Shown in pieces: positions 620 to 35,181 of a stretch of 40,095 nt of DNA. The stretch is from a virus. The position numbers and the translations under genes were made by a program. Position 1 is the first letter of the stretch. Each line of letters opens with the position of its first letter. The notes beneath the pieces were generated by a model. That model was not told where the DNA came from. It saw only the letters and a program-made list of their open reading frames with translations, and made no database searches. The stretch covers positions 1 through 40,095 of IMG/VR virus record IMGVR_UViG_3300038701_001365. One strand, 5' to 3'.

Positions 620-725
620 CCTTTATATATACTATATAGCAAGCTTGATGCCAACTATAGAGCCCTTTAAAGCCCTCTAGAGCATAAAAAAGTGTCTAAC
701 TTATTAAAATTGTATACTATTTAAA
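620..725 (-). repeat. About 105-bp promoter module (copy 1), homologous to 4425..4530 and more loosely to 2098..2200
   Basis: Near-identical blocks: TATAGCAA..TGCCAACTATAGAGCCCTTTAAAG..CT.TAGAGCATA...AGTGTCTAACTT...TTGTATACTATTTA. Confidence 0.8.
638..654 (-). promoter_or_regulatory. sigma54-type -24/-12 promoter P1 (TTGGCAT-caagc-TTGCT), leftward
   Basis: The minus strand reads TTGGCATCAAGCTTGCT with GG-N10-GC spacing. The GC lies about 28 nt upstream of the ATG at 611. Confidence 0.7.
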
Positions 726-749
726 CACTTTCCTTTTGTTATAAGTTTA

Positions 750-758
750 TGTTATACT
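750..758 (+). promoter_or_regulatory. Extended -10 promoter (TGtTATACT) for a probably leaderless mRNA of ORF 765..1211
   Basis: TGTTATACT ends 7 nt before the A of ATG 765. There is no SD between them. Confidence 0.4.
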
Positions 759-764
759 ATCTAT

Positions 765-1211
765 ATGAAATTGTTATTAAACTTCGATAAAATACAACCT
801 ATGTCCATAAATAAGGCTTACTACAAAACTAGAAAGGTTCTAACTCAAGCCGCTAGAGACTATAGGAAGTCTATATGGGAGCAGATGGAACCCCATAGAC
901 AAGAAATAGACGAGTTTAAATCTAATTTTGATAAGTTTAAACATAGTTTGTCACTTAAAGTCTATGTTGGAGTACCTTCTAGTAGATTTTATACACAGCA
1001 AGGGTATATCAGTCTACACAGCTCAGATATCGACAATATAGCTAAACTTTTAATAGACAATACGGTAGACCCTAAATTTAGAGCTGAGAAATATGCTGCC
1101 CCAACTTTAGATATCGATGATAAATTTATAACCGCTCTATTTTTAAGTAAATACGCCTCTCCTGAAGAGCATTGGCATATCGAAATGGAGTTCGAGATCA
1201 TAGATTTATAA
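765..1211 (+). CDS. RusA-like Holliday-junction resolvase (putative)
   Basis: Motifs PMSINKAYY...SDIDNIAKLLIDN...DIDDKFI resemble the RusA catalytic Asp signature (DxDNxxKxxxD...DD). It is the only + strand gene inside the leftward early block. Confidence 0.5.
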   Translation: MKLLLNFDKIQPMSINKAYYKTRKVLTQAARDYRKSIWEQMEPHRQEIDEFKSNFDKFKHSLSLKVYVGVPSSRFYTQQGYISLHSSDIDNIAKLLIDNTVDPKFRAEKYAAPTLDIDDKFITALFLSKYASPEEHWHIEMEFEIIDL

Positions 1212-1316
1212 AAATAGAGCTAATAAGAAAGCTATGATTAAAGCCGTTGATAAAGCCCCTGTTAGAATCCCTGTTATAATAGTCATGAGTATAACCACAT
1301 CTTTTAAGCTTAGCAT
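1206..1316 (-). CDS. 36-aa single-pass membrane peptide
   Basis: Not in the ORF track (under 60 aa). Perfect SD AAAGGAGG lies 5 nt before ATG 1316. Translation MLSLKDVVILMTIITGILTGALSTALIIAFLLALFL. Confidence 0.5.
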   Translation of the reverse strand: MLSLKDVVILMTIITGILTGALSTALIIAFLLALFL

Positions 1317-1333
1317 GTTGCCTCCTTTTATAA

Positions 1334-1804
1334 TTATTTAAACACTGATTTAATTTTACCTTCTTTAAATAGCTCAAAAGACTCTTCTATACATCTAGAG
1401 AGCCCTAGATTTTCTACGCATCGGGTAGAGTCGGTAGTATATATACCCATTAATTTTCCGCGACTATTTACTGTAGATTCTATGTGATCAAACCCGAAGT
1501 AGCAGTGAAGCATTTCGTGGGCTAGTAAGGCCGTTTTAGCACTATCCGAGGCGCTTTCCCAAAACTTCTTTCTTATTTTTATAAGAACACCTCTTTTATT
1601 CGAGATCCGGCAGATACCGTTCTTAGAGGTAGCTTCTAAGTCATTATTAATTTCGACATTTATAAAAAGGTCCTCTAGACTTAGGCCTAGTTCACTAGCC
1701 ACCTCTATTTCGTAGGTGGTTATATCTGTACGTACTTTGTTTAAAGAGTTGTCGCAAGATGTACTATAAATTGTTATTATACATAATAATATATTTTTAA
1801 TCAT
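1334..1804 (-). CDS. Secreted or lipoprotein zinc metallopeptidase (HExxH)
   Basis: N-terminal signal sequence ending ..IYSTSC (lipobox-like). Motif AHEMLHCYFGFDH. Confidence 0.5.
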   Translation of the reverse strand: MIKNILLCIITIYSTSCDNSLNKVRTDITTYEIEVASELGLSLEDLFINVEINNDLEATSKNGICRISNKRGVLIKIRKKFWESASDSAKTALLAHEMLHCYFGFDHIESTVNSRGKLMGIYTTDSTRCVENLGLSRCIEESFELFKEGKIKSVFK

Positions 1805-1806
1805 TT

Positions 1807-2073
1807 CTATGCCCCTACTTTATTTCTGTATTCCATAAAGTCGATAACATCGCAGTCTGACTCCTCTTCAATGTAGAAGAAAATCTTATTGTACCCGTCT
1901 TTGTAGAACTTCGCTAAACACTGATCTACTTCGTACCACATGTCCTCAACATTTACTAAGTGATGTATCCCGCGCTCATCGTTTTGCCCAAACTCCTTAT
2001 TCTCCAGTATCTCATATTCTTTGAAGTTATAAAATTCTTCTAAAATATCTTGTAATCTCTCTTTGTTTGTCAT
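1807..2073 (-). CDS. Hypothetical acidic early protein
   Basis: ORF track. SD GAGGAG upstream. First gene behind sigma54-type promoter P2. Confidence 0.6.
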   Translation of the reverse strand: MTNKERLQDILEEFYNFKEYEILENKEFGQNDERGIHHLVNVEDMWYEVDQCLAKFYKDGYNKIFFYIEEESDCDVIDFMEYRNKVGA

Positions 2074-2112
2074 CCTAAACTCCTCTTGTTAGTTAGTTTA
2101 TATACAATATGT

Positions 2113-2128
2113 AGCAACATTGATGCCA
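2113..2128 (-). promoter_or_regulatory. sigma54-type -24/-12 promoter P2 (TGGCAT-caatg-TTGCT), leftward
   Basis: The minus strand reads GGTGGCATCAATGTTGCTAC with exact GG-N10-GC spacing. It lies about 40 nt upstream of ATG 2073. Confidence 0.7.
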
Positions 2129-2195
2129 CCTATAACCCTATTTAAACCCTAATATAGCTTTAATAAGTGTATATATTGTCCACAATGTACACTAT

Positions 2196-2417
2196 TTATT
2201 CACTATCTTTAAATGTAAAATTAGGCTCGCTTTTTTTAATATTGCTGACAATCTTATTTAATTTTTTAAACGCCGTCTCTAAATCTTTCCTAGAACTATT
2301 TGTATCAAGATGGTAGTAATAACCTTTAAACTTGTCTTTATACCTCTCTTCTACAAAGAGTTGTAAATTTACTATCTTTTTAATTATGGATAACCTGTTG
2401 CTTGAGTATAGTTTAAT
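2196..2417 (-). CDS. Hypothetical protein from a 73-codon stop-free ORF with no ATG/GTG/TTG (candidate AUU start)
   Basis: Hand translation IKLYSSNRLSIIKKIVNLQLFVEERYKDKFKGYYYHLDTNSSRKDLETAFKKLNKIVSNIKKSEPNFTFKDSE. AGGAGG lies 6 nt upstream of ATT 2417. Confidence 0.4.
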   Translation of the reverse strand: MKLYSSNRLSIIKKIVNLQLFVEERYKDKFKGYYYHLDTNSSRKDLETAFKKLNKIVSNIKKSEPNFTFKDSE

Positions 2418-2418
2418 T

Positions 2419-2619
2419 TCAAACCTCCTTGTTGTTCAATGCTTTTTCAATAATTTTTTGAATCTTCATAGCTTCTTTATAAGTCGCCTCATCGCCATTA
2501 TGTCTAATTTGTATGTGGAGACCTCTGGAATTATTGACGTTTTTAGTTTTTGAAAAAACACTAATGCCCAAACATTTTTGCTGGATATCTATGCCGTCTG
2601 TATTTTTGTATGCTTTCAT
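2419..2619 (-). CDS. Hypothetical early protein
   Basis: ORF track. Sits in an operon context. Confidence 0.55.
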   Translation of the reverse strand: MKAYKNTDGIDIQQKCLGISVFSKTKNVNNSRGLHIQIRHNGDEATYKEAMKIQKIIEKALNNKEV

Positions 2620-2648
2620 TTTAATATTCTCCTATTGGTTTAGTTGGT

Positions 2649-2927
2649 TTAAGCTTCTCTCTCTTCTCTGATGTCCCACGAACCCATCCAGATTAAAAAA
2701 CTAATAAGTTCCTCTCTGGTTGAATCTTCAGTGTAAGACTCAGCTCCAGTGGACTCTACAGCCTCAAGAAGTTTCGATGTTTCAATCTTGCTGAACTGTT
2801 CAGTGTATTCACTCAAACAGTCTTCAACGTATGAGTCGCAAGCGCCTTGCTGAGCCATATAATCAACGTCATCAGCGTTTATGTAGAACTCGCCTAAGCT
2901 CTCTATGTAAAAATATTGTTTGCTCAC
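2649..2927 (-). CDS. Hypothetical acidic early protein
   Basis: ORF track. Adjacent to 2929..3144. Confidence 0.6.
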   Translation of the reverse strand: MSKQYFYIESLGEFYINADDVDYMAQQGACDSYVEDCLSEYTEQFSKIETSKLLEAVESTGAESYTEDSTREELISFLIWMGSWDIREEREA

Positions 2928-2928
2928 T

Positions 2929-3144
2929 TTATACCGCCTTCTTAATGTTATATTCTGGTGACTCGATCACTCTACCTACAACCTCAACTATAGAAGTTTT
3001 AAGTAAATCTATGACCTGTCTTAACTGATACTCTCTTATTTCATTCACTGAACCAGGGTTGTTAGTTAGGTTTGAGAGCTCTGTCCTAGCCCTCTCTAAA
3101 CCTTGTGTTAACTCTATTATTTCATTTAATTGTGATTGTCTCAT
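2929..3144 (-). CDS. Hypothetical early protein (coiled-coil-like)
   Basis: ORF track. Abuts its neighbours. Confidence 0.6.
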   Translation of the reverse strand: MRQSQLNEIIELTQGLERARTELSNLTNNPGSVNEIREYQLRQVIDLLKTSIVEVVGRVIESPEYNIKKAV

Positions 3145-3378
3145 TTATATCTCCTTTTTAAGAGGTTTGAAGTATGTAGCCGTTTTCCCACAAATAGGGT
3201 CAAATTTAGTTCTCATACACATAAAATCTGCTGCCTCTAAAAACATCTGTATATTCATCATTTCTGATGTTTCAAACCCTGATGTCCATACTACCCACGT
3301 ATCATTATCTACTCTATCATAATGATCCATATTATTTGACATTCTCTCTAAACCTATTCTTTGTTTTTTAGTTAACAT
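3145..3378 (-). CDS. Hypothetical early protein (77 aa; start trimmed from 3465)
   Basis: ATG 3378 is preceded by AAGGAGA. The longer ORF-track start would run through promoter P3. Confidence 0.6.
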   Translation of the reverse strand: MLTKKQRIGLERMSNNMDHYDRVDNDTWVVWTSGFETSEMMNIQMFLEAADFMCMRTKFDPICGKTATYFKPLKKEI

Positions 3379-3412
3379 TCTTATTCTCCTTGTTAATTTA
3401 TACACACTATAT

Positions 3413-3428
3413 AGCAAAAGCGGTGCCA
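3413..3428 (-). promoter_or_regulatory. sigma54-type -24/-12 promoter P3 (TGGCAC-cgctt-TTGCT), leftward
   Basis: The minus strand reads GTTGGCACCGCTTTTGCTATATAG, about 35 nt upstream of ATG 3378. Confidence 0.7.
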
Positions 3429-3694
3429 ACTTGTACTGCCCACACATTAGAGTACAGCGATACAAAACTGTATATACATTGTGTAAACTGTTGCGGTATT
3501 CAATTAGTGTAATGATTTCAATACCTTATGTGTGTGTATATCTTTTTACCACTGTATAACCTATAAACACTTACTATTTTTGGTATGTTTTACTATCATT
3601 GTAACATAATAATACACCATATTTCCCGTTTTTAAACAATGTAACATAATATTGCGTACATAAGTTATCGATATAACAGGGGAAAAAATAAAGC

Positions 3695-3724
3695 TTGACA
3701 CGCTTATATTTGACTTGATATATT
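3695..3724 (+). promoter_or_regulatory. sigma70 promoter of structured RNA A (TTGACA-N18-TATATT)
   Basis: The hexamers are conserved with the RNA B promoter while the spacer sequence differs. An A-rich UP-like tract lies upstream. Confidence 0.65.
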
Positions 3725-3730
3725 AATTAG

Positions 3731-3835
3731 TGTTCCCCTTAATTAGAGCCCGCTTACATTATGACAATTAATAGGCCTTACGGCCATCCTAGTGAACACA
3801 TTGAGCAGCGGGTACACTGTGGCACAATATGTACA
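3731..3835 (+). ncRNA. Structured RNA family, copy A
   Basis: Outer stem CCCGCT(3749-3754)/AGCGGG(3807-3812). Hairpin GGCC-TTAC-GGCC (3774-3785). Conserved TAGTGAACACATTG and a GTGGCAC tail (3819-3825). The ends are approximate. Confidence 0.6.
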
Positions 3836-3924
3836 CAAATTACACCAATATATGATATTATACTCTAACTAATAACAATTATCAGTTAACTATTAAGTAA
3901 ACTAAACAAATAAAGTTTATACCC

Positions 3925-3953
3925 TTGACAAGCTTTTTAGTACCTGCTATATT
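3925..3953 (+). promoter_or_regulatory. sigma70 promoter of structured RNA B (TTGACA-N17-TATATT)
   Basis: Consensus -35, 17-nt spacer, and a 5/6 match at -10. It is followed by the same AATTAGTG start region as copy A. Confidence 0.7.
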
Positions 3954-3959
3954 AATTAG

Positions 3960-4060
3960 TGCTATCCCTTAAATAGAGCCAGCCTACATTATGTCACTTC
4001 GTAGGCCTTACGGCCACTGTAATGAACACCTTATGCGGCTGGTACTTAGTGACACTTAAT
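3960..4060 (+). ncRNA. Structured RNA family, copy B
   Basis: Outer stem CCAGCC(3979-3984)/GGCTGG(4037-4042), with two compensatory pair changes relative to A. Hairpin 4004-4015. GTGACAC tail 4049-4055. Confidence 0.6.
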
Positions 4061-4061
4061 A

Positions 4062-4145
4062 CCCACATACAAATTGACAATTAATAGGCCTTACGGCCAT
4101 CCTAGAGCACACTAGTGCTGTGGGCCACATAGTGACACAATATGT
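4062..4145 (+). ncRNA. Structured RNA family, copy C (no promoter of its own; probably co-transcribed with B)
   Basis: Outer stem CCCACA(4062-4067)/TGTGGG(4119-4124). Bases 4075-4104 are identical to 3763-3792 of copy A. Hairpin 4087-4098. GTGACAC tail 4132-4138. Confidence 0.5.
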
Positions 4146-4167
4146 CTTAATTTATGGGTTAACATAT

Positions 4168-4416
4168 TTATTCCCCCCACTGTACTTCTAATATTCTGTC
4201 ACCTTCGAAACAAATCTCTTGAACGTCCTTAAGTTCCATATAACTTTGGTTAACTCTGTACATGTTGTGAAGCATTATGCTTAAGGCAACACTGTTTAGG
4301 TTTTGAACTATCCAATCATAACCAACTAATATGGTATCGTTTTCAGTAGCCACTACGTACTCTCTATACTCGGGTCTTTTCACTTCATTTTGCTTGTTAT
4401 TAGTATCTCTAGTCAT
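4168..4416 (-). CDS. Hypothetical early protein
   Basis: ORF track. SD AAGGAGA upstream. Single gene behind promoter P4. Confidence 0.6.
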   Translation of the reverse strand: MTRDTNNKQNEVKRPEYREYVVATENDTILVGYDWIVQNLNSVALSIMLHNMYRVNQSYMELKDVQEICFEGDRILEVQWGE

Positions 4417-4424
4417 ATTATCTC

Positions 4425-4530
4425 CTTAGTTATATACTATATAGCAACATCAGTGCCAACTATAGAGCCCTTTAAAGTCCCTTAGAGCATAGAATAGTGT
4501 CTAACTTTTATCCTTTGTATACTATTTAGT
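4425..4530 (-). repeat. About 105-bp promoter module (copy 2), homologous to 620..725
   Basis: See 620..725. It includes TTGTATACTATTTA (4515-4528), at the same 65-bp distance from the -24 GG as in P1 and P2. Confidence 0.8.
4443..4458 (-). promoter_or_regulatory. sigma54-type -24/-12 promoter P4 (TGGCAC-tgatg-TTGCT), leftward
   Basis: The minus strand reads GTTGGCACTGATGTTGCTATATAG, about 30 nt upstream of ATG 4416. Confidence 0.7.
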
Positions 4531-4997
4531 CAATATATACTAGAAGTTGTCATTTTTGTATTTTATTGACAATATATGTCCGTGTATCAATTTGAGGCTA
4601 CCTGAGAGCCTTGTCACGCTCTTTAAATACAATCTATAACATAATACCCTAACTAATACTAAATCTACTGTATGGGCCTTCTATGGCTTCATCTTAATAA
4701 GCGTAAACATTAGTTGTTTAGCTAATTAGATTTAAACCATGGTAGCTCTTCTAAGCCCTTTTATTCAAATAGTATACAAATACCTTATGGTAGACATTAA
4801 ACGCCTCTATGAGGCTTATATGAACTTATTCGGGCTAAATAGTACTGGACCTAATTAGTGACTCAATGTAGAACGTCTAAATAATAGTCAATATCAACTA
4901 TCTAATAGTCTCAAATATGCCGGACATCTATTATGCTTTAATTATGCTGATCCCTTAAAGATAAGATTATTATGGAACTACATTGCTTTAGGGGGAG

Positions 4998-5013
4998 CGC
5001 AATCTCCATGCCA
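4998..5013 (-). promoter_or_regulatory. sigma54-type -24/-12 promoter P5 (TGGCAT-ggaga-TTGCG), leftward into ORF-free DNA
   Basis: The minus strand reads GTTGGCATGGAGATTGCGCT. It shares the AGTACAAGTTGGCA context with P3. I found no ORF longer than 10 codons with an SD in the 430 nt downstream. Confidence 0.55.
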
Positions 5014-5111
5014 ACTTGTACTAACCTGCGCTGAGGGTTCAATGAAGCATAAAGATGCTGGACTACTACTTGACATCCACTTAATATTGTGTTATGTGGC
5101 CTATTATTATG

Positions 5112-5127
5112 TGGTACATTTCTTGCA
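5112..5127 (+). promoter_or_regulatory. sigma54-type promoter P6 (TGGTAC-atttc-TTGCA), rightward
   Basis: Exact GG-N10-GC spacing. First of three sites spaced 38-39 bp apart. Confidence 0.55.
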
Positions 5128-5150
5128 ATAGAGTATTCCCCCTAAATACA

Positions 5151-5166
5151 TGGCATAATTCTTGCA
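5151..5166 (+). promoter_or_regulatory. sigma54-type promoter P7 (TGGCAT-aattc-TTGCA), rightward
   Basis: Exact GG-N10-GC spacing. Confidence 0.6.
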
Positions 5167-5188
5167 ACTAACTAAACCTCCTTGAGGT

Positions 5189-5204
5189 TGGCATATATCT
5201 TGCA
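5189..5204 (+). promoter_or_regulatory. sigma54-type promoter P8 (TGGCAT-atatc-TTGCA), rightward
   Basis: Exact GG-N10-GC spacing. Confidence 0.6.
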
Positions 5205-5304
5205 TAGAAGATGCTCAGTTCGAATCTATCCCATTCTGAGACACATATGCAGCGTATCATATTGAGACATGCCCCTTCAAAATTAGGCCCCCCCTAGGTA
5301 GAGG

Positions 5305-5320
5305 TGGCACGCAAATTGCA
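5305..5320 (+). promoter_or_regulatory. sigma54-type promoter P9 (TGGCACG-caaa-TTGCA; textbook consensus), rightward
   Basis: TGGCACGCAAATTGCA matches the YTGGCACGrNNNTTGCW consensus at every specified position. Confidence 0.65.
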
Positions 5321-5609
5321 GAGAGAGCGGTAGGAGTCCCCCTTTGCTATAACACAAAAAATAAGGCCCCCACACTAAGTGCCACAAGGTGTTTTCGGGT
5401 AAAAAGTGGCGGAATTATGACCATTTTTTGGCGGAAAAATGTGACGCCTTTTAGCTGACGAACTACAAATTATCCAATAATTATGGTATGTTACAAGTTT
5501 AGCTTTTTTAGGTTTTAGTGGAGTTCGTCACAAGATGTTGCGCTGACGAACTTTAGGTTAAATACCGCAAGGTGTAAGTAGCTGTAATCATTAGATTATA
5601 AGAATTCTA

Positions 5610-5637
5610 TTGACTATATATAAAAATATGTTATGAT
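5610..5637 (+). promoter_or_regulatory. sigma70 promoter (TTGACT-N16-TATGAT) of the packaging operon
   Basis: Hexamers read directly from the sequence. About 90 nt upstream of the first ORF. Confidence 0.5.
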
Positions 5638-5639
5638 TA

Positions 5640-5715
5640 ACAAACCACCTACTTAACTTAAGTTGGTTCGTCATAAATTGGTCGCCGACTAAAAGTAGGG
5701 CTGTAGGTGGTTTGT
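5640..5715 (+). promoter_or_regulatory. 13-bp perfect inverted repeat (ACAAACCACCTAC ... GTAGGTGGTTTGT) forming a leader stem-loop
   Basis: 5640-5652 pairs with 5703-5715. The 50-nt loop contains one iteron. It sits between the sigma70 promoter and the SD GAGGAG (5726-5731). Confidence 0.6.
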
Positions 5716-5735
5716 ATTGACACTTGAGGAGAAGC

Positions 5736-6176
5736 GTGACGAAGAAACTGACGAACATTAATGTAAGAGGTATGCTGACGAAGATTTACCTACAATCAGT
5801 TAAAAGTTACGATAAAGGCGCTCCTGACGAATCTACGGCCTATATAGAATGGGAAAAGCGTTCAATATATTTTAATGTATCAGATATTAGTAAAGAGACT
5901 ATTCGTCACGAATTGACCCATGCCTATATTAAGGCGAGCTTCACGGAGCAGATCCCAGATCTAACCCTAGAGCAATTAGAAGAGATATTCTGTGAAGTGG
6001 TCTCCCATTTTGGGACTACTATTATAAAACAAGCTGATAGCATCCATAAGGAAATGTTATCCCTTATTAAGGAGGATAAATTTGGGAACAGTAAAGACAA
6101 AGAAAGAAAGTCTACAAAAAGCGTCTATGGCGAAATTGAACAAGAACGTGAAGAAGCTGATTTTAGATCAGAATGA
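5736..6176 (+). CDS. Small HExxH protein (putative metallopeptidase-like)
   Basis: ORF track 5724..6176. GTG 5736 follows GAGGAG at 4 nt; ATG 5772 is an alternative start. Motif IRHELTHAY. Confidence 0.4.
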   Translation: MTKKLTNINVRGMLTKIYLQSVKSYDKGAPDESTAYIEWEKRSIYFNVSDISKETIRHELTHAYIKASFTEQIPDLTLEQLEEIFCEVVSHFGTTIIKQADSIHKEMLSLIKEDKFGNSKDKERKSTKSVYGEIEQEREEADFRSE

Positions 6177-6997: not shown

Positions 6998-7661
6998 CCT
7001 CTCATCCCTACGCAGAATTTCTGTAGCAACTCTAGTAGGACTTATAATATTTTCAGCTACACCATTGGCGTTAAGCCCTGATGCAGATTCGTTTAAGCCG
7101 GGGTTAGTAAAAAAAATAGCACCCTACACACTACCTTTAGTGTACCCAGACGGAAATAAATTCTGCTCAAGTTCTGCCGTACAATTCCTAGATAAGGTGT
7201 ATACGGTAACAAATAACCATTGTTGTGAAGTAGATTCGTTTATAGGTGACTTGAGATTAGTAGGAGATACTATACAAAATATATTGTACCAAAGCCCTGA
7301 CCATGATCTATGTATACTTACATCTAAATTTAAAACATCTCCTATTACATTAGCTACAGATGACGCAGAGGTTCTAGACGAGGTCCTATTAATGGGATAC
7401 CCTAGAGGAGAGGCCCTCACTCCAAGATTCGGGCACGTCCTAGTAAAAGATATGCGGCTACATATAGCGGGGTATAGTTACGTGTCCCATGTCATATCTA
7501 CTGTCACCTACGCAGGTAATTCGGGCTCCCCCCTGTTTAATACGGAAGGCGAGATAGTAGGCGTCCTATATGCAGGTAACCTAGTATTACACACTTACGG
7601 CATAATGGTTCCCCATAGATACTTATTAAAAGCATTAATGGAAGCGCGTATCAGTGAGTAA
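6969..7661 (+). CDS. Trypsin-like (S1) serine protease with N-terminal signal/TM segment
   Basis: Catalytic-triad contexts TNNHC, DHDLCIL and GNSGSPLF. Hydrophobic N-terminus ...LVGLIIFSATPLALS. Confidence 0.7.
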   Translation: MYQKTLLRHSLSSLRRISVATLVGLIIFSATPLALSPDADSFKPGLVKKIAPYTLPLVYPDGNKFCSSSAVQFLDKVYTVTNNHCCEVDSFIGDLRLVGDTIQNILYQSPDHDLCILTSKFKTSPITLATDDAEVLDEVLLMGYPRGEALTPRFGHVLVKDMRLHIAGYSYVSHVISTVTYAGNSGSPLFNTEGEIVGVLYAGNLVLHTYGIMVPHRYLLKALMEARISE

Positions 7662-9078
7662 TCTCAGAGAACAGATTTTACAGGACTTAAACAAACCCCG
7701 AGGGGACGGTTTAAAAATCGGTCTCAAACAAGCTTTACACGAAAAGCAGCTAGAGCTTTTAACACCTATCCTACGTGATAAAAAGAAAATAACCTTCGGT
7801 GCATGTGGACGTAAGTTCGGTAAGTCTAGGGCTACTTGTTATTTAGCATGGAGGTGGGCTTTATTAAATCCAAACTCTTCTGTATATATAGTGTGTCCCG
7901 AAGGTACTCATGGTAGACGTATCTACTGGAAAGATGCGCGTATATATCAATTCTTAGGGGTAGATTCTAAGAAGTATATACTAGGTAAACCTAACAGCAG
8001 GGAATTAACAATAAATTTTAAGAATGGTTCTAACATACAGATAATGGGTTCCGATAACTATATGGCAGCCAACGGTTTAACGCCCGATCTAGTTATATAT
8101 GATGAGTTTAAAGGGTTCCACCCAGAATTCCACACACAAATGGACCCGAATAGGGCCGCTAAAGCTGCGCCTTTATTAATAATAGGTACACTAGCCGAGG
8201 ACGGTATAAGAAATAAAGATGAATATTACGCGCTATTAGAAGATTGTGAAGAACACCCAGAAGATACTCCAGTATTTAAATACGGTACGTTCGATAATCC
8301 TATTAATCAATTACCAGGACAAAAAGAGGCTATCTTGAAACAGATAGAACTACTTAGAAGACAAGGTAAAGAGCACGTAGTTCAAAGAGAGTATTTCTCC
8401 AAGATTATACCAGGAGGAGAAACTGCAATCTTTCCCTACTTTAACCCAGATGAGCACGTATTCCCTCACGAAGAGTTAGTACAAGAAATAAATAAAGATG
8501 TCAACAATCTTGAGTGGTGCGTATCTATTGACCCAGGGAATAGGACAGTATTTGCAAGTGTTATGGCAGCGCATGACCCAGAGAACTCTGTACTATACGT
8601 ATTAGATGAGAATTATGCTAGAACACAGTCAGAAACATTAATATCAAAATTTATGGCAGCTTTAAGAGGTAAGATGCTGTCTCTATACCCTTCTGGGGAT
8701 CTCGATAGAGGTTGGGCTAAGGTATGTGATGAGCAGGCAGCATGGGCTATTCTGGAGACTCTAGGACAGTTTAATGACATGGCCTTTATGAAGTCTAATA
8801 AAAATGCTAACAAAAAAGATTATGGTATTACACTACTAAATGAAGCAATGCAGAAGGGACTCATAAAAATAAGTGATAGATGCACTAATTTAATTAAAGA
8901 GATCACAGATTACCACATGAATAAACAAGGTAGAATACCTAAAGTTAATGACCATGGTATAGACGCATTAAGATATCTTATACACCATATAAATTATACT
9001 ATTGTACCCGATATTGATTATAAAGAAAAAAGGGACTATAGGGACGATAATAGTAGTATTTGGGGGGACTTCTTTTAA
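7654..9078 (+). CDS. terL: Terminase large subunit
   Basis: Walker A-like GACGRKFGKS, Walker B LVIYDEF, and C-terminal nuclease Asp motifs (SIDPG, HGIDALRY). Size and position fit. Confidence 0.85.
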   Translation: MSNLREQILQDLNKPRGDGLKIGLKQALHEKQLELLTPILRDKKKITFGACGRKFGKSRATCYLAWRWALLNPNSSVYIVCPEGTHGRRIYWKDARIYQFLGVDSKKYILGKPNSRELTINFKNGSNIQIMGSDNYMAANGLTPDLVIYDEFKGFHPEFHTQMDPNRAAKAAPLLIIGTLAEDGIRNKDEYYALLEDCEEHPEDTPVFKYGTFDNPINQLPGQKEAILKQIELLRRQGKEHVVQREYFSKIIPGGETAIFPYFNPDEHVFPHEELVQEINKDVNNLEWCVSIDPGNRTVFASVMAAHDPENSVLYVLDENYARTQSETLISKFMAALRGKMLSLYPSGDLDRGWAKVCDEQAAWAILETLGQFNDMAFMKSNKNANKKDYGITLLNEAMQKGLIKISDRCTNLIKEITDYHMNKQGRIPKVNDHGIDALRYLIHHINYTIVPDIDYKEKRDYRDDNSSIWGDFF

Positions 9079-14546: not shown

Positions 14547-15104
14547 ATGCGTACCGGTGTTATATATTGTATTACTAACCAGATAAATGGTAAGAAGTAC
14601 GTAGGTCAGACAATAGTTCCTCTAAGAAAGAGAATGTCTAGACATAAATACGCTGAATCAGCTATAGGCAACGCCATACGAAAATATGGTTTCGATAACT
14701 TTAAAGTAGAGGTTCTACACGAAGCTAGACAAGAGGTATTAGGAGATATAGAAAAGGAGTGTATATTGAATCACGACTCTATGTACCCTAACGGATACAA
14801 CCTAACCTTAGACTGCTCAAACTACAGGACATTCTGCGACCACTCCCTAAAAAAGAAGGGTAAACACACATTAGGTAAAAAACAAAGTAAAGAATTGATA
14901 GAAAAGAGAATGAGTAAAATAAGAAAACCCGTTACTTGCATAGAAGATCAGATAACCTTTCTAAGCATGAACTACGCTGCTGAGCACTACGGAATAGTGT
15001 CAGTAAAGAGTATTAGAAGGCAGATTAAAGGTATACGTAAGAGTAAGATTAAGGGTAAAACGTTTGTAAAAGCAGGAGGTGCGTCATCGCATTCATACCA
15101 ATAG
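14547..15104 (+). CDS. GIY-YIG homing endonuclease (freestanding)
   Basis: N-terminus GVIYCITNQINGKKYVGQT...RHKY. Basic C-terminal DNA-binding-like region. Inserted between the capsid and tail genes. Confidence 0.8.
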   Translation: MRTGVIYCITNQINGKKYVGQTIVPLRKRMSRHKYAESAIGNAIRKYGFDNFKVEVLHEARQEVLGDIEKECILNHDSMYPNGYNLTLDCSNYRTFCDHSLKKKGKHTLGKKQSKELIEKRMSKIRKPVTCIEDQITFLSMNYAAEHYGIVSVKSIRRQIKGIRKSKIKGKTFVKAGGASSHSYQ

Positions 15105-26661: not shown

Positions 26662-26976
26662 TTATTTACCCAACTCTTTTGACCTATTATTAGCCTGTTG
26701 CTTCCAATCTTCCCACCTACAGTTACCTGGCTCATAGTTGCCATTGTTATCTATTCTATCTAGCTCTAGACCGTCTCTGTAAAACTCTCCCATATCTTCC
26801 CAGAACCCTACAAAATCTAGCCAATCATCGCAAACAGTTATACCGCGGCCACCATATAATTTATAATTAGTATTATTTTTATTAAGGCACCTCATTTTCA
26901 TGCAAGTCCATATTTTATAAGGCCGTGTACGCGACATACCGTGCCTCATATTTTTAGTTAAAATCGGGATTTCCAT
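26662..26976 (-). CDS. HNH-like homing-endonuclease-family protein (paralog 2, short form)
   Basis: YKIW..MK.RC....YGGRGITVCDDW..F..F..DMG....LDRIDNNGNYEPGNCRW. SD GGAGGA before ATG 26976. Confidence 0.65.
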   Translation of the reverse strand: MEIPILTKNMRHGMSRTRPYKIWTCMKMRCLNKNNTNYKLYGGRGITVCDDWLDFVGFWEDMGEFYRDGLELDRIDNNGNYEPGNCRWEDWKQQANNRSKELGK

Positions 26977-27433
26977 GTTTATCCTCCAGGTAGGCTAACA
27001 TAGCTACATTGGCAGCTATATGGTCTAAGTGACGTAGTCCAGACTCACTATCAAACTCCTCTCCTGAAATAATTGCAAAGGTATGTCTTAGTAGAGCTGC
27101 ATATACTCTCTTCAAGTCTTCTTTTTTAAAACCTTTATAACCATTTCTAGTGTACTTACATGCGCCAAATCCTAGAGCCCTTGCTATAGCATTGACGGCT
27201 AACGGATGTACAAGAGATAAATCAGGTTTACCTTCATCAAACTTAGTAGCACCGACCTCTTCTGGTCCGACAGGGCGTAAATCGACCGCATAGAAATAAT
27301 AATTGTCATCAAAAGAGCTACTAGCTACTTCATAATAGTAATTCCCTACTGGGCTAGGCCTTCTACCTACCACACTTGTTACCTCTCCCGTAGACTTTAT
27401 AACTACTCTATCCCCTATTTCAAACTTGACCAT
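26954..27433 (-). CDS. dATP/dGTP pyrophosphohydrolase-like (DUF5664/MazZ-like) protein with an extra N-terminal small beta domain
   Basis: KFDEGKPDLSL....A.ALGFGACKY......RHTFAIISGEEFDSESGLRHLDHIAANVAMLAYL fits the family signature (K.D.GK...L....GA.KY....RH....GE..D.ESG..H..H...N). Confidence 0.6.
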   Translation of the reverse strand: MVKFEIGDRVVIKSTGEVTSVVGRRPSPVGNYYYEVASSSFDDNYYFYAVDLRPVGPEEVGATKFDEGKPDLSLVHPLAVNAIARALGFGACKYTRNGYKGFKKEDLKRVYAALLRHTFAIISGEEFDSESGLRHLDHIAANVAMLAYLEDKHGNPDFN

Positions 27434-30422: not shown

Positions 30423-32134
30423 AACTTCTCCCATCTATCTAACCTATGTCCGTCTACATCTATAATAACATCAGGAGCTATTACCTTACCAGCTTGTATC
30501 ATAATGTCACACGCCTCTTTATATCTGTCTGTGTTTTTATCTATCTCTATTATAGCTTCATCGTGTATCTCTGCCACAACTTTAAATCCGGCCCTTATAA
30601 GGCCATATAGAGCCGTTTTTAGCATATCGGAACCTAGCCCTTGAAACGGTGTGTTGGCTACAGCACAGTACGTAGCGTTAGCTCGCCTTCTACCTGTTCT
30701 GGTAAATACGTCACCCTCTTCACACTCTTTAAGGTAGTCTACCATTTCTGGGAAAGCGTCAAAGTACTTTTCCTTCATAACTTCCGCTTCCCATCGCTTT
30801 AAATTTAGACCATATCCCGCTGCGAACTGTATAAACGTGTCTATACCTAAGCCACCCGGAAACCCGAATACGGCAGCCTTAGCTTGCTGTCTCTCTTCTT
30901 TGGTTACGTCTTTTTGTTCTTTATTGAATAGCACGGAAGCGTAGTATCTGTGCAAATCCTCTCCCCTATTTATAGCATCTAACATAGAGCTATGTCCGTA
31001 CTTATCGTATAAGACCTGGGCTAGCATGGCGCTTTCCATGCCGGAATAATCTATTATGTAGAACTCTTTTTCTTTAGATGTTGGTACAAAACACTCTCTA
31101 ATACCTCCCGACCTAGGTACATTCTGTATATTAGGGTTACTAGAGGCTGTTCTACCAGTGTTCTGTATAGTTGTGTACGATGGGTGTATTACCTTTTCCG
31201 TTAAAGCGTTAGTGAATGATAACAACTTACTTAACTTACTATACTCCATGTAGTCTGATATAAACGGGTAATTAGAGAACGCAATTAGGTCGTCCTCTTT
31301 AGATGATATTCTATTTGATTTAGGGCTTCTAGGTAACTGATCCGCTATACCTATGTGCTCTAAAATGTTTTCATATATATCTAGAACACCCGGCCTACCT
31401 TTAATATATCCCCATAAAGCCATTCTCTGCTCTACTATACCTAGTCTGTCTCCTAATTTTGTTTTAATATTTTGTGTAGCCTCTAAGTCAACCCCTATAC
31501 CATTCTTATATATCTCTCCTAAAGCTAAGTCACCCTTCATCTGTATGTCCAAACTAAGAAGTGTGCCATGAGTGTCTATGGCAGTTATTAAGCCAAGTAG
31601 TTTCTTATACAACTTGTGTGTATATATAACGTCTAGCATGGCATATTCTATGTGCGCATCTGGTATATCGGAGACTGGTTTATCTAAGTACTCGCCGAAA
31701 GTACATCTAACAGCCTCGTCCTTATCTACAAAGATGTTAAAGAATCTCTGCATCATACCAGCTAAAGATGTACCCCTTCTAGGCACTACGCCTTCATAAC
31801 CTAAAGACCATAATTGATACATCAATTTAGTGTCTCTTACCTTATTTCTATCGTAGAATTTATATAGTAGAGACCAGCCTATTTCGTTAGCTATTACTCC
31901 CATATCAAATTTAATGTTTTGGCCTATGAGTGTCGCATGATAATTAGTTAACAGGAAAGATCTAACATCTTCTTTATTAACAATAAACGCTGATACACCG
32001 TCAAAAGCTTGAAATAGTACTAATTTATGGAGTCTTGTGTGAAAAGCTTCTACCGTTGTCTCGCAGTCTACAGTAATCTCCGGGCCCATAACCTGCCCTT
32101 TCCAGATACTTATTTTATACCCTTTTACTAACAT
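30419..32134 (-). CDS. Family A DNA polymerase with 3'-5' exonuclease domain
   Basis: Exo motifs VDCETT, NIKFD and YAMLDV. Pol motifs IIDYSGMES (A), RQQAKAAVFGFPGG (B) and EIHDE (C). Start set at ATG 32134 (SD GGAGGA). Confidence 0.9.
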   Translation of the reverse strand: MLVKGYKISIWKGQVMGPEITVDCETTVEAFHTRLHKLVLFQAFDGVSAFIVNKEDVRSFLLTNYHATLIGQNIKFDMGVIANEIGWSLLYKFYDRNKVRDTKLMYQLWSLGYEGVVPRRGTSLAGMMQRFFNIFVDKDEAVRCTFGEYLDKPVSDIPDAHIEYAMLDVIYTHKLYKKLLGLITAIDTHGTLLSLDIQMKGDLALGEIYKNGIGVDLEATQNIKTKLGDRLGIVEQRMALWGYIKGRPGVLDIYENILEHIGIADQLPRSPKSNRISSKEDDLIAFSNYPFISDYMEYSKLSKLLSFTNALTEKVIHPSYTTIQNTGRTASSNPNIQNVPRSGGIRECFVPTSKEKEFYIIDYSGMESAMLAQVLYDKYGHSSMLDAINRGEDLHRYYASVLFNKEQKDVTKEERQQAKAAVFGFPGGLGIDTFIQFAAGYGLNLKRWEAEVMKEKYFDAFPEMVDYLKECEEGDVFTRTGRRRANATYCAVANTPFQGLGSDMLKTALYGLIRAGFKVVAEIHDEAIIEIDKNTDRYKEACDIMIQAGKVIAPDVIIDVDGHRLDRWEKL

Positions 32135-32642
32135 TAGTCCTCCTATTATAGGCCTGTTGCTTCGTGGTTGCCCATCTACAGTTAGAAGGCTCATAATTAC
32201 CGTCGTTGTCTATTCGGTCTATAGAGTGTCTAGCTGAGGGTCTTTTTCCCATATCTTCTAGAAAGTTCTCAAAAGAGTTTAACCATCTATCGCATACAGT
32301 AATACCCCTACCTCCCCAGTCCTTATATCTTTTATGATTCGTATTGGTACATCTATCCCTTAAACCTTTCCACGCCGTATATTCTGGCGTTAGGGAAAGC
32401 CCATGTTTAAAGTTGTGGTGACGTGGGCCTTTTAGTAACTTATGTAGCTTGTAAGCACTCTTAGATGCAGTATCCTGTCTAAGGCACCCACAAGACTTTG
32501 TGTGACCTGACTTAATCTTATAATCACTACATATAAATATAACGCCGCACTTACATAGAAACTCTGAGAAGGATTTCCCTCCCTTGCCTCTTTTCACAGT
32601 TTTATTTAATAGAGCTATTACCCTACTACCTTTTACATTCAT
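32115..32642 (-). CDS. HNH-like homing-endonuclease-family protein (paralog 3, long form)
   Basis: CKCG...SCGCL finger plus WGGRGITVCDRWLNSFENFLEDMG...IDRIDNDGNYEPSNCRW. Sits directly upstream of, and overlapping, the polymerase gene. Confidence 0.7.
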   Translation of the reverse strand: MNVKGSRVIALLNKTVKRGKGGKSFSEFLCKCGVIFICSDYKIKSGHTKSCGCLRQDTASKSAYKLHKLLKGPRHHNFKHGLSLTPEYTAWKGLRDRCTNTNHKRYKDWGGRGITVCDRWLNSFENFLEDMGKRPSARHSIDRIDNDGNYEPSNCRWATTKQQAYNRRTNVSKRV

Positions 32643-34304: not shown

Positions 34305-34904
34305 TTATCCTACCTCAGTGTTAAAAGATTTATCTACGCTCCAACCTCTTTTTATTCTAGCGTATAACGTGTTATATTTTATATTTAAGTGCTTTGCCCA
34401 CCTCGACAGGCACTTAGTCTCACCTTTGTATTTTATCTTAAGATTTGTACGTTGGTTTGTAGACTGTGTCTTATTATCTACCCATCTACAATTAGAAGGC
34501 TCATAATTACCATTATTATCTATTCTATCTAAAGAGTGTTTACTAGAAGGCTTTTCTCCCATATCTTCTAGAAAGTTCTCAAAAGAGTTTAACCATCTAT
34601 CACATACAGTAATACCCCTGGCCCCGTAGTTTTTGTATGCCCTGTGGTTTTTATTAGAACACCTCTCTAACATACCTCTAAACGTGTTGTACTCTTTTGT
34701 ATATGTTTTACCATGGGTTGCCATGATCCTAGATAAGGTATTAATCCTCTTACATCCGCAAGACGTTGTGTGCCCTATATTTACTTTAGATGTGACTGCA
34801 CTAAACTCTTTACCACAGTAACAAACATAATCTGACATTAATTTATTGTTACTGTAATGTCTACTACTATTTAGTCTCATTAAGCACAAAAAGGTCTCAC
34901 CCAT
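34305..34904 (-). CDS. HNH-like homing-endonuclease-family protein (paralog 4, long form)
   Basis: CYCG...SCGCK finger plus YGARGITVCDRWLNSFENFLEDMG...LDRIDNNGNYEPSNCRW. ATG 34904 is preferred over TTG 34919. Confidence 0.7.
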   Translation of the reverse strand: MGETFLCLMRLNSSRHYSNNKLMSDYVCYCGKEFSAVTSKVNIGHTTSCGCKRINTLSRIMATHGKTYTKEYNTFRGMLERCSNKNHRAYKNYGARGITVCDRWLNSFENFLEDMGEKPSSKHSLDRIDNNGNYEPSNCRWVDNKTQSTNQRTNLKIKYKGETKCLSRWAKHLNIKYNTLYARIKRGWSVDKSFNTEVG

Positions 34905-35181
34905 TAAAATTGCTCCCAATCTCTAACAGTTTTTTAGCTTGAAATAAAGATAACACTTCCGTATGTGAAATCTCTAATCTATCTACTAATTTAGCAAAGT
35001 TATCTAACGATATATTCCTGTCCCCGCCTTCAATTTTTTGTAAATTTCTGCGGTCCATTTCAAGTATTTCAGCAGCTTGTCTTTGCGACAAACCTTTTGT
35101 ACGTCTACTTTTTCTTACCATGTCTCCTAATCTCTTTTTAATAATAACGGACCTACCGTCTTTATAATTAATATGAGCCAT
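34897..35181 (-). CDS. XRE-family helix-turn-helix transcriptional regulator
   Basis: KGLSQRQAAEILEMDRRNLQKIEGGDRNISLDNFAKL is a typical HTH_3 signature. Confidence 0.8.
   Translation of the reverse strand: MAHINYKDGRSVIIKKRLGDMVRKSRRTKGLSQRQAAEILEMDRRNLQKIEGGDRNISLDNFAKLVDRLEISHTEVLSLFQAKKLLEIGSNFNG

Follow-up and report, generated by a model that had tools for sequence, protein, structure and literature searches.

The window, by which we mean the whole 40,095-bp stretch of viral DNA analysed here, carries two divergent gene arms, a left arm of small early-type and replication genes and a right arm of packaging and virion genes. Between them lies a control region that the sequence-only reading had described as free of ORFs. 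Our scan agreed, with zero ORFs of at least 40 aa in 4417-5723, and genes predicted separately for L087, an identical contig, likewise left the equivalents of 4416 to 5772 free. A hidden protein gene was rejected on this ground and because tblastx of the control region against the relatives L088, L003 and L001 returned DNA-level islands only. The window as a whole gave neither tRNA genes nor Rfam families at gathering score; the ORF-free region therefore contains no known RNA gene. The coordinates of the features are collected in Table 1.

Table 1. Features of the control region and of the left arm (coordinates are those of the window)
Feature	Position	Strand	Evidence
ORF-free control region between the divergent arms	4417-5723	.	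ORF scan and independent gene call
Leftward -24/-12 site, TGGCATGGAGATTGCG	4998-5013	-	Exact match
Rightward site 1 of the tandem trio, TGGTACATTTCTTGCA	5112-5127	+	Exact match; 16.3 bits, weakest of nine
Rightward site 2, TGGCATAATTCTTGCA	5151-5166	+	Exact match
Rightward site 3, TGGCATATATCTTGCA	5189-5204	+	Exact match; 21.7 bits, top score of nine
Rightward site 4, TGGCACGCAAATTGCA, full consensus match	5305-5320	+	Exact match
TTGGCAC-N5-TTGCTATATAGTATATA before the first left-arm gene (4168-4416)	4443-4458	-	GGYAY-N5-TTGC match
Same motif inside ORF 3145-3465, 35 nt upstream of an internal ATG	3413-3428	-	GGYAY-N5-TTGC match
Same motif; ORF 1807-2073 starts 40 nt downstream	2113-2128	-	GGYAY-N5-TTGC match
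Same motif; ORF 393-611 starts 27 nt downstream	638-653	-	GGYAY-N5-TTGC match
Sigma70-type promoter near the right arm, TTGACT-16-TATGAT, TG-extended	5610-5637	+	Sequence; conserved in L088
Leader stem, 5640-5652 pairing with 5703-5715	5640-5715	+	13-bp perfect inverted repeat
TGACGAA cluster surrounding the sigma70 promoter, nine direct and inverted copies	5456-5908	.	9/11 genome copies here

Five GG-N10-GC sites had been claimed in this region, one pointing left and four pointing right. We verified both their coordinates and their sequences, together with the spacings of 39, 38 and 116 bp between the rightward sites. Within the tandem trio (5112/5151/5189), the 16-nt core is the sole sequence that the direct copies share. 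Bare GG-N10-GC is a weak criterion, with 164 matches genome-wide vs 116 expected, and significance therefore rests on the extended motif. TGGYAY-N5-TTGCR, in which GG and GC stand exactly 10 bp apart, matched 5 times in the 40,095 bp, and the matches were exactly these five sites; shuffled sequences gave a mean of 0.09 matches and a maximum of 1. The broader GGYAY-N5-TTGC gave 9 matches vs 0.67 expected, all inside 639-5319. A matrix scan at a lax threshold, where about 2.3 false positives are expected, added one weak coding match elsewhere and nothing convincing in the other 35 kb. The nine sigma54-type motifs are restricted to the control and early region of the phage. From the leftward site it is about 580 nt to the first left-arm start codon (4416); the stretch ahead of it had been put at about 430 nt, and is really about 540 nt of ORF-free DNA up to a sigma54-like site at 4457. 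The rightward sites stand 404-610 nt from the next co-oriented gene.

The remaining four copies of the motif belong to the left arm, and all four were placed as promoters would be, 27-40 nt before the SD and start codon of a co-oriented gene. The site at 4443-4458 is followed by an SD and then by an ATG 27 nt after TTGC. In ORF 3145-3465, the internal ATG at about 3378 is preceded by AAGGAG. This ATG is likely the real start, since the site at 3413-3428 falls downstream of the listed TTG start (3465). An upstream element, ctcta-AGGGCTTTAAAGGGCTCTATAG, is common to the sites at 638-653 and 4457. No strong sigma70-like promoter was found on the left-arm strand, and canonical -24/-12 sites are, as far as the DNA letters tell, the sole recognisable promoters of the whole left arm. 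The earlier remark that the stack had nothing obvious to express was too strong for the leftward site, which forms a tandem pair with the 4457 promoter and is the more upstream of the two.

Barrios et al. 1999 are said to have given the consensus YTGGCACGr-N3-TTGCW for RpoN promoters. The same wording is found for the sigma54 -24/-12 consensus in a later account (PMC3844500). In order to judge positions that had played no part in selection, we used 81 non-redundant family sites chosen solely on GGYAY-N5-TTGC. T was found at -26 in 79/81 and a pyrimidine at -27 in 67/81; purines occupied -20 in 66/81 and -19 in 69/81, and A/T occupied -11 in 71/81. The same flanking trend was seen in 293 sites, among the matches listed, from contigs without a detected relative of this phage. 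The sigma54-type reading of the sites hence extends to flanking positions that had not been used when it was proposed. Bacterial sigma54 (RpoN) -24/-12 promoters, of which glnAp2, pspA and nifH are examples, share with the phage sites GG and GC 10 bp apart, TGGCAC/T, TTGC(A/T), T at -26, purines at -20/-19 and A/T at -11. Unlike them, the phage sites are tandem-stacked 38-39 bp apart, run in both directions, lie in a virus genome, come with no enhancer or bEBP that we could find, and often have C-tracts within the region that must melt. C5-C7 tracts frequently occupy about -8 to -3 of the adjoining site, which makes the melting region G+C-rich. In the window, a C5 tract (4995-4991) follows directly after the leftward site on that site's own strand, and the site at 5305-5320 is flanked by a C7 tract (5288-5294) and by C5 tracts at 5338 and 5367.

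Scans with Pfam and PHROGs detected neither an RNA polymerase nor a sigma factor nor a bEBP (Sigma54_activat) among the phage proteins covered; the few ORFs outside this set are below 120 aa, too short for a bEBP ATPase domain. Ten proteins from array-bearing contigs without a detected relative of this phage gave the same negative result. We saw no enhancer-like element that was conserved, and nothing was conserved at -37 to -28 in the 81 family sites. As there is no activator in the scanned phage proteins, a wholly sigma54-dependent left arm would need a host activator that is already active at infection. Searches by blastn and tblastn against cultured phages gave no cultured relative, and a scan of GTDB genomes gave none either. 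Samples that contain the phage include SRR15330770 and SRR26831631. Among the cluster names in the host search, one match was binned to 'Candidatus Dojkabacteria', which is uninformative.

The most useful comparison was with L088, a mosaic relative whose TerL is identical and whose left ~1 kb of control region has largely diverged. In this part, conservation is confined to islands around 5012 and at 5256-5345, together with weak similarity at the 5152 site; the right-arm regulatory region forms a third conserved block. L088 keeps the divergent layout, with minus-strand sites at 3258 and 3287 followed by plus-strand sites at 3321, 3357 and 3425, and all five retain GG-N10-GC despite diverged flanks. 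The leftward site 4998-5013 is itself such an island (GG at 3258, minus strand), the site at 5151-5166 was paired by BLAST with the L088 site having GG at 3357, and in the block 5256-5345 TGGCACGATAAATGCA again comes after the same aggccccccctag. Two further L088 sites, 2836 and 1315, are gene-proximal, before the SD and start of a co-oriented gene. In L003, we found two exact sites together with near-matches that have a variant -12 element. Retention of the region without GG/GC had been named as evidence against sigma54 sites; the reverse was observed, the surroundings having diverged and GG/GC having been kept in L088 (5/5) and L003. The description of the sites as a divergent cluster was borne out. 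An 18-mer scan found no closer relatives in viral contigs, and 25 metagenome 18-mer matches were all due to chance.

We then counted sites by position over 40 non-redundant relatives. Their homologous regions, 36 kb in all, contained 64 sites (1.78 per kb), vs 39 sites over the other 666 kb of their sequence (0.059 per kb), which is a 30-fold enrichment. At least one site was present in the homologous region of 26/40 loci, and the cluster was absent in 14/40. Even phages with TerL identities of no more than 38-49 % share the motif in unaltered form. Sites also precede co-oriented gene starts in relatives (L001 6479, L009 1474, L019/L020, L065 3662, L068 3783), and a site stands before the first leftward gene in L051, L056, L062, L063, L069 and L077. 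Across the family, the right arm is repeatedly preceded at 250-600 nt by a rightward site, and a sigma70 promoter lies in the interval. In several relatives and in many contigs without a detected relative, the sites form face-to-face pairs separated by only 3-5 bp or follow one another in tandem at 25-28 bp; measured from start to start, the array geometries are 17-19 bp face-to-face, 23-25 back-to-back and 26-29 tandem.

Beyond this family, at least 48 viral contigs without a detected relative of this phage have clusters of three or more sites. Among the matches listed, contigs without a detected relative of the phage's proteins span 33-64 % GC and show the same motif clustered, which points to a universally conserved reader and not to a family-specific protein. 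Sigma54 DNA recognition is conserved. A genome scan for the face-to-face pair mostly returned an unrelated intergenic repeat of about 150 bp in saprophytic Leptospira, which we set aside as a cassette-array-like false positive; other matches, among those listed, numbered about 37, plus one Saccharibacteria bin. The phyla of these 37 or so matches, we presume, generally possess sigma54. Actinobacteria, Cyanobacteria and SAR11 are not known to have rpoN.

Since similar clusters are found in related as well as unrelated phages, the sites are most likely host-sigma54 promoters stacked both ways. Judged from sequence, we consider it reasonably probable that they are multi-copy -24/-12 promoters for the host sigma54 polymerase, directed leftward into the early/replication arm and rightward, via a leader of 400-600 nt, into the packaging arm. 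We infer that host RNA polymerase with sigma54 would bind the sites as closed complexes and that the five control-region sites would be productively transcribed, several copies giving better odds of a closed complex ready for the activator. The leftward site and the identical-type promoter 4457 would feed the early/replication arm, within which three sites of the same type (3427, 2127 and 652) may re-initiate transcription. The four rightward sites would serve as a stacked distal promoter ahead of the packaging/virion arm's own sigma70 promoter; their transcripts would run through the C-tract region and the leader into that arm. Such read-through, raised in the sequence-only reading, is plausible, given that no plus-strand terminator-like site was found between 5320 and 5724 and that the layout recurs in relatives. 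Left of the cluster there is one weak terminator-like hairpin, 4815-4803. The required ATPase activator would presumably be a host bEBP, possibly working from solution; bEBPs without a DNA-binding domain can activate in this way (PMC3844500). Points that weigh against this reading are the negative searches for an activator and an enhancer, the G+C-rich melting region, sites in L001/L002 that point antisense, face-to-face or tandem sites too close for simultaneous occupation by polymerases, and the patchy distribution among relatives.

Known systems offer partial parallels. The 400-600 nt leaders recall E. coli sigma54 mRNAs, whose 5' UTRs often measure 360-760 nt (PMC4591121). The promoter fragments discussed here for a phage are from Pseudomonas phage YuA (NC_010116), for which a later account describes three '-24/-12 consensus sequence' fragments as highly active in a promoter trap (PMC10914365). 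YuA resembles our phage in having no RNA polymerase of its own and in using host sigma70-type and -24/-12-type promoters. The YuA -24/-12 promoters reportedly stem from Ceyssens et al. 2008. Each of them occurs singly within the late structural region, whereas the motif of the present phage is canonical, clustered, bidirectional and found in the control/early region only. The strict motif had 0 matches in the first 50 kb of the 58.7-kb YuA genome, all three annotated fragments included, and no strict sites were found in Mx8 or in the packaging region of Mx9. The left end of T7 carries the tandem early promoters A1-A2-A3, which are of sigma70 type, unidirectional and activator-free. They are alike in being host-polymerase promoters stacked in non-coding DNA at the start of a long transcription unit, with short C-rich 'CCTAAAG'-like repeats nearby, as CCCCCTAAAG and CCCCCTAAATAC adjoin two sites in the window; they differ in sigma factor, in their single direction and in needing no activator.

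Another sequence-specific protein could instead bind the sites, their sigma54 likeness being coincidental and the cluster being an origin, operator or packaging-recognition array. Candidates would be a phage regulator, a Prim-Pol/helicase replication initiator, or a terminase or packaging factor, and the phage does encode a Prim-Pol plus DUF3987 helicase-type protein, an XRE HTH protein and a small terminase. Both orientations and the preferred geometries resemble iteron or operator arrays bound by small proteins. Examples of such arrays are those of the lambda ori, the P4 alpha sites and the omega-protein heptad arrays, which likewise consist of short direct and inverted repeats with preferred spacings in a non-coding control region. 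The phage motif differs from these in being the sigma54 consensus, in also occurring singly before genes (four more copies, up to 4.4 kb from the cluster), and in being common to phages without a detected relationship. The cluster coincides with the cumulative GC-skew minimum, immediately upstream of the packaging module, and the control region has a local GC-rich island at 5250-5400; the nearest AT-rich stretch, 4500-4600 with 26 % GC, is about 400 bp off. There is no DnaA-box cluster, a point against this explanation. Contigs break inside the arrays, and L015, which lacks the motif, has at the same place a different repeat, TAAACAAGYTTTG, in both orientations. The sigma54 match, however, reaches degenerate flanking positions that were never selected, and the motif is constant across the range of TerL identity and GC content given above, where one would expect drift if a phage protein and its site were co-evolving. 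Many sites in relatives, like four of those in the window, lie at fixed distances upstream of co-oriented starts, and the 14/40 relatives without the cluster have the same TerL-type packaging module. We consider this explanation unlikely.

A second alternative accepts binding of the sigma54 holoenzyme and holds that the control-region cluster is mainly non-productive, with only the gene-proximal sites being true promoters; the cluster could then be a trap for sigma54 polymerase, an insulator or roadblock between the arms, or a nucleoprotein landmark by the C-tract, for example in replication or packaging. We regard this as quite unlikely. The same motif clearly holds promoter positions ahead of genes, and the window and L088 are cleanly divergent, with every site pointing outward from the cluster, an order that a pure sink does not need. 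The tight packing of face-to-face and tandem sites would leave too little room for several polymerases firing at once, but face-to-face pairs may also be read as compact bidirectional promoters with starts beyond each other. In its favour, closed complexes of the sigma54 holoenzyme are stable and transcriptionally silent, and some E. coli sites have been suggested to act as decoys (PMC4591121). The cluster adjoins C-tracts in either orientation across the family, L001 and L002 retain two control-region sites that point antisense into plus-strand genes, and the failure to find an enhancer or activator also fits. That the sites are ordinary sigma70 promoters with TTGGCA as the -35, or chance occurrences in AT-rich non-coding DNA, is extremely unlikely and essentially refuted: sites 652 and 4457 do read TTGGCA-17-TATATA (10/12 of the sigma70 consensus), but a -10-like hexamer at 16-18 bp is present in 0/5 control-region sites, the reading fails at 3427, 2127 and in relatives, TTGC is invariant at a fixed distance that no sigma70 spacer requires, the shuffles exclude chance, and the flanking consensus and family enrichment tell against both.

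Host-sigma54 promoters, our preferred reading, would be an unusual equipment for a virus. A sigma54 promoter stays silent as long as no ATP-driven activator has remodelled its closed complex, which makes such promoters an odd choice where gene expression is needed immediately. Our literature search gave only isolated cases of phage use of sigma54 promoters, such as YuA; here, a conserved bidirectional -24/-12 stack fills the central control region across a large uncultured phage family of about 120 contigs. If the sigma54 dependence is real, infection would be tied to the activity of host enhancer-binding proteins, and through them to nitrogen status, motility or envelope stress. The alternative outcome would be a new way to activate or sequester sigma54 polymerase. 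Multi-copy, enhancer-less clusters of sigma54 sites may even represent a widespread phage control module, so far undescribed and often built of 31-34-bp face-to-face pairs beside C-tracts, although we hold this generalisation to be doubtful. If true, many uncultured phages of widely differing GC, without detected kinship to the present one, would run their control and early regions on sigma54 polymerase without an activator of their own. Firing might then depend on whichever host bEBP is active, so that infection would be gated on the physiological state of the host; a phage-encoded non-AAA+ activator of a new kind, or deliberate trapping of the sigma54 holoenzyme, would be the other options.

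Several other elements of the control region deserve mention. The palindrome AGCAT-aaag-ATGCT at 5046-5059 is present as had been described; since it is not conserved in L088, its suggested role as a shared activator site gains no support. Two candidates for an enhancer were rejected, a TTGACAATAT-like repeat near 4527-4575, which was not enriched, and the AGGGCTTTAAAGGGCT element, which was found only at three gene-proximal sites. The sigma70 promoter noted at 5610 does exist, and distant relatives have equivalent TTGACA-17-TGnTAnnnT promoters. The leader stem downstream of it closely precedes the SD and start codon with which the first right-arm gene begins, was recovered in the minimum-free-energy fold, and shows two compensatory changes in L088. 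TGACGAA has 11 genome copies vs 2.3 expected genome-wide, and its cluster, conserved in L088, is a candidate operator or packaging-recognition array. The contig is circular through a 93-bp overlap and represents a complete phage genome.

The sequence-only reading had proposed one leftward and four rightward sigma54-type sites between the two genome arms, and all five are present with exactly the positions, strands and sequences described, the rightward ones being spaced by 39, 38 and 116 bp (sites are named after the position of their GG). The pattern TGGYAY-N5-TTGCR matches only these five in 40,095 bp, with 0.09 matches expected from shuffles, whereas bare GG-N10-GC is uninformative by itself (164 matches versus 116 expected in the window). 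The strict motif, GGYAY-N5-TTGC, gave nine matches versus 0.67 expected, all within 639-5319. A position matrix at a lax threshold, for which about 2.3 false positives are expected, added just one weak hit, in coding sequence, in the other 35 kb. The four further sites share TTGGCAY-N5-TTGCTATATAGTATATA and stand in textbook promoter positions. When the whole left arm was searched, no strong sigma70-type promoter was found on the minus strand. A sigma70 reading of the gene-proximal sites, TTGGCA-17-TATATA, was rejected; two of the four cannot be read in this way, and neither can any of the homologous sites in relatives.

The control region between the arms, 4417-5723, indeed contains no ORF of at least 40 aa, but the ORF-free DNA ahead of the leftward site spans about 540-580 nt and not 430 nt. 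An independent gene call on the identical contig placed no gene there, and neither a tRNA nor an Rfam family was detected in 4417-5723. The sigma70-type promoter claimed near 5610 is found at 5610-5637. Overall, the motif identity and the divergent arrangement hold up, and read-through into the right arm is plausible, there being no plus-strand terminator-like site before 5724. The palindrome at 5046-5059 is present as well, but its role as an activator site was not upheld.

Coordinates of the genome arms, sigma54-type sites and neighbouring elements (in the window unless a relative is named)
Feature	Position	Strand	Sequence or content
Plus-strand (right) arm	5724-26624	+	small HExxH protein, small and large terminase, protease, portal, major capsid, tail proteins
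Minus-strand (left) arm	4416 through contig junction to 26662	-	small early-type ORFs, Prim-Pol/helicase, DNA polymerase A, nucleases, M15 endolysin
Leftward site 5012	4998-5013	-	TGGCATGGAGATTGCG
Rightward site 5113	5112-5127	+	TGGTACATTTCTTGCA
Rightward site 5152	5151-5166	+	TGGCATAATTCTTGCA
Rightward site 5190	5189-5204	+	TGGCATATATCTTGCA
Rightward site 5306	5305-5320	+	TGGCACGCAAATTGCA
Four gene-proximal sites	GG at 4457, 3427, 2127, 652	-	each 27-40 nt upstream of Shine-Dalgarno and start codon of a minus-strand gene
C5-C7 tracts	4991-4995, 5138-5142, 5288-5294, 5338-5342, 5367-5371		flank sigma54-like sites
C-tracts in relatives	L015 4440-4590; L021 4460-4610
Leader stem	5640-5652 / 5703-5715		perfect 13 bp enclosing 50 nt, between sigma70 promoter and first right-arm start codon
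Sigma70 promoters of units A and B	3695-3724 and 3925-3953	+	near-consensus TTGACA-17/18-TATATT, TG-extended, at unit start

The window ends in a 93-bp direct repeat (1-93 and 40003-40095) inside a pentapeptide-repeat gene, and this overlap indicates a circular, complete genome map of about 40,002 bp. Among the phage proteins scanned, neither an RNA polymerase nor a sigma factor nor an AAA+ enhancer-binding protein was detected. The phage belongs to an uncultured family of 40-45 kb genomes, with 223 homologues of its large terminase (TerL) at E<=1e-20; 80 IMG/VR loci were fetched for comparison, and no cultured relatives were found. Two paralogous HNH endonuclease genes in the replication module (32115-32642 and 34305-34919, minus strand) and a GIY-YIG domain ORF among the head genes (14547-15104, plus strand) are likely homing endonucleases. 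A MazZ-like dATP/dGTP diphosphohydrolase domain is encoded at 26954-27433 (minus strand), while PurZ is absent. Amid the minus-strand early genes lies a plus-strand ORF of 148 aa (765-1211) with weak RusA-like and HTH matches; divergent from site 652, it appears to be a real gene, since it is conserved in the relative L001 (3269-3814).

In the mosaic relative L088, TerL is identical to that of the window, yet the left ~1 kb of the control region has largely diverged. Conserved blocks within the diverged part surround site 5012 and cover 5256-5345, including a C7 tract and site 5306; site 5152 has a weak match, and the right-arm regulatory region is also conserved. GG-N10-GC is kept in every control-region site of L088, and the layout is the same, with leftward sites (3258, 3287) on the left and rightward ones (3321, 3357, 3425) on the right; two more sites directly precede leftward genes. 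As the rightward trio of the window is represented by fewer copies in L088, site copy number changes quickly. The homologous region of the further relative L003, whose TerL is 73 % identical, contains two exact matches pointing left, together with near-matches carrying a variant -12 element. Across 40 non-redundant loci covering the region 1.7-2.7 kb upstream of TerL, 64 strict sites fell in 36 kb of homologous region versus 39 in 666 kb elsewhere, a 30-fold enrichment; at least one strict site occurs in 26 of these loci, and the cluster is absent from 14. Positions outside the search pattern reproduce the sigma54 consensus YTGGCACGr-N3-TTGCW: among 81 family sites, T occupies -26 in 79, a pyrimidine -27 in 67, a purine -20 in 66 and -19 in 69, and A or T -11 in 71. 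Conservation of GG and GC in homologues, which the sequence-only reading had put forward as a test, thus favours the motif, the family sites matching the sigma54 consensus.

A scan of IMG/VR for pairs of strict sites within 15-45 bp of each other gave at least 120 matches, about 10-20 of which were estimated to arise by chance. Among the matches listed, only 41 of 119 new loci contained a relative of the window phage's proteins. The other 78 ranged from 28 to 64 % GC, on contigs of up to 95 kb (the 28 % GC locus, L181, is a low-complexity repeat and was set aside from the cluster count), and at least 48 of them had three sites or more inside a 600-bp stretch, as many as 16 in a single locus. 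These clusters again occur in both orientations and beside C/G tracts, and positions outside the search pattern are biased in the same sigma54-like way. That viruses so diverse share an unchanged motif points to a reader that is universally conserved. To our knowledge, sigma54 is the only such reader of a motif of this kind. Our literature search found no description of such arrays. The closest precedent is the Pseudomonas phage YuA, whose record annotates three promoter-trap-active '-24/-12 consensus' promoters; unlike the clustered sites of the window, these stand singly in the late region, and the strict motif matches none of the three. Collectively, these appear to be canonical sigma54-type promoters in an unusual viral arrangement, with clustering, both directions and an apparent lack of enhancers; many uncultured phages show it again.

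We consider it reasonably probable that the nine sites are promoters for host sigma54 and that the control region is a divergent promoter block. Site 5012 together with 4457 would drive the left arm, sites 3427, 2127 and 652 would boost its transcription, and sites 5113, 5152, 5190 and 5306 would together serve the right arm as a stacked distal promoter. Long 5' UTRs are found in E. coli sigma54 mRNAs, which the right-arm leader of 400-600 nt resembles (PMC4591121); a TGACGAA cluster, the sigma70 promoter and a 13-bp stem may act in this leader as regulatory features. We infer sigma54 binding and firing at the nine sites and, from the lack of a phage activator and of a conserved enhancer, that the activator is a host enhancer-binding protein (bEBP), possibly acting from solution. 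Activation by bEBPs from solution works at reduced efficiency (PMC3844500), for which multiplication of promoters would compensate.

It is unlikely that the sites serve another protein, as origin iterons, operators or packaging sites, and resemble the sigma54 consensus by coincidence: the regular array geometry and the position of the cluster at the GC-skew minimum, upstream of packaging genes, favour this, but the match of unselected positions to the consensus, the constancy of the motif across phages without detected kinship and its gene-proximal copies all speak against it. It is quite improbable that sigma54 holoenzyme binds without productive transcription, the bound sites serving as trap, insulator or landmark next to the C-tract element. 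Sigma70 promoters or chance matches are scarcely credible.

Several features complicate the promoter reading. In L001 and L002, two control-region sites point into plus-strand genes. In L053, L056, L061, L062 and many contigs without a detected relative, sites form face-to-face pairs 3-5 bp apart, back-to-back pairs or tandems 25-28 bp apart, so that several polymerases cannot occupy them at once. By geometry alone, a face-to-face pair can be a compact bidirectional promoter; its transcripts diverge because each start, ~12 nt beyond GC, lies past the partner site. At the corresponding place in L015, which lacks the cluster, another repeat occurs in both orientations.

The C-tracts, often of the form CCCCCC-N2-AAAAAA and frequently at about -8 to -3 of the adjoining site, form an island of locally raised GC content (0.51-0.53) where the cumulative GC skew is at its minimum. 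Contigs without a detected relative also have them next to their arrays, and since their conservation in the TerL family extends to members that lack the site cluster, they are a separate element, perhaps a marker of genome ends or of an origin, or a Rho-related signal.

Nine of the 11 genome copies of TGACGAA (2.3 expected genome-wide) fall within 5456-5908. Both orientations are represented, and the cluster surrounds the sigma70 promoter and extends into the first right-arm ORF; it is conserved in L088 and is a candidate operator or terminase-recognition array. The leader stem is likely a regulatory RNA structure, as it shows two compensatory changes in L088. About 1.6 kb upstream of TerL, L054, L056, L062, L065, L068 and L085 have a hairpin with the invariant loop GAGCGAAGCGAA, which holds the GCGAAGC mini-hairpin motif. 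This hairpin is flanked by the site cluster and the right-arm sigma70 promoter; its stems differ between relatives yet stay complementary, and the window lacks it. Two and a half tandem units occupy a stretch of the left arm that is poor in ORFs (3690-4140, plus strand). In units A and B, the conserved sequence after the promoter is ~110 nt long and includes a GGCC-TTAC-GGCC hairpin, and a longer stem shows covariation from unit to unit (GCCCGC/GCGGGT versus GCCAGCC/GGCTGGT). Transcription of the units runs in the direction of the first left-arm gene, to which it is antisense, so that they are small-RNA candidates; the relative L021 has a similar promoter and start (4038-4100).

Elsewhere, the unrelated viral contig L201 (2056-5560) repeats at least five times a module in which a tandem pair of sigma54-type sites precedes the perfect palindrome CTGCCATTTTGGCAG, itself present twice. 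The array-bearing L125, with no detected relative of the window phage, encodes a PurZ-like adenylosuccinate synthetase (7115-8197), which hints at 2-aminoadenine genomes among array-bearing phages. In Leptospira yanagawae, L. vanthielii, L. soteropolitanensis and others (L236-L315), a GC-rich intergenic repeat of ~150 bp follows nearly every same-strand ORF, as in a cassette array; within the repeat is a 34-bp palindrome whose fit to the face-to-face sigma54-site pattern is due to chance, and the repeat breaks those assemblies into many small contigs.
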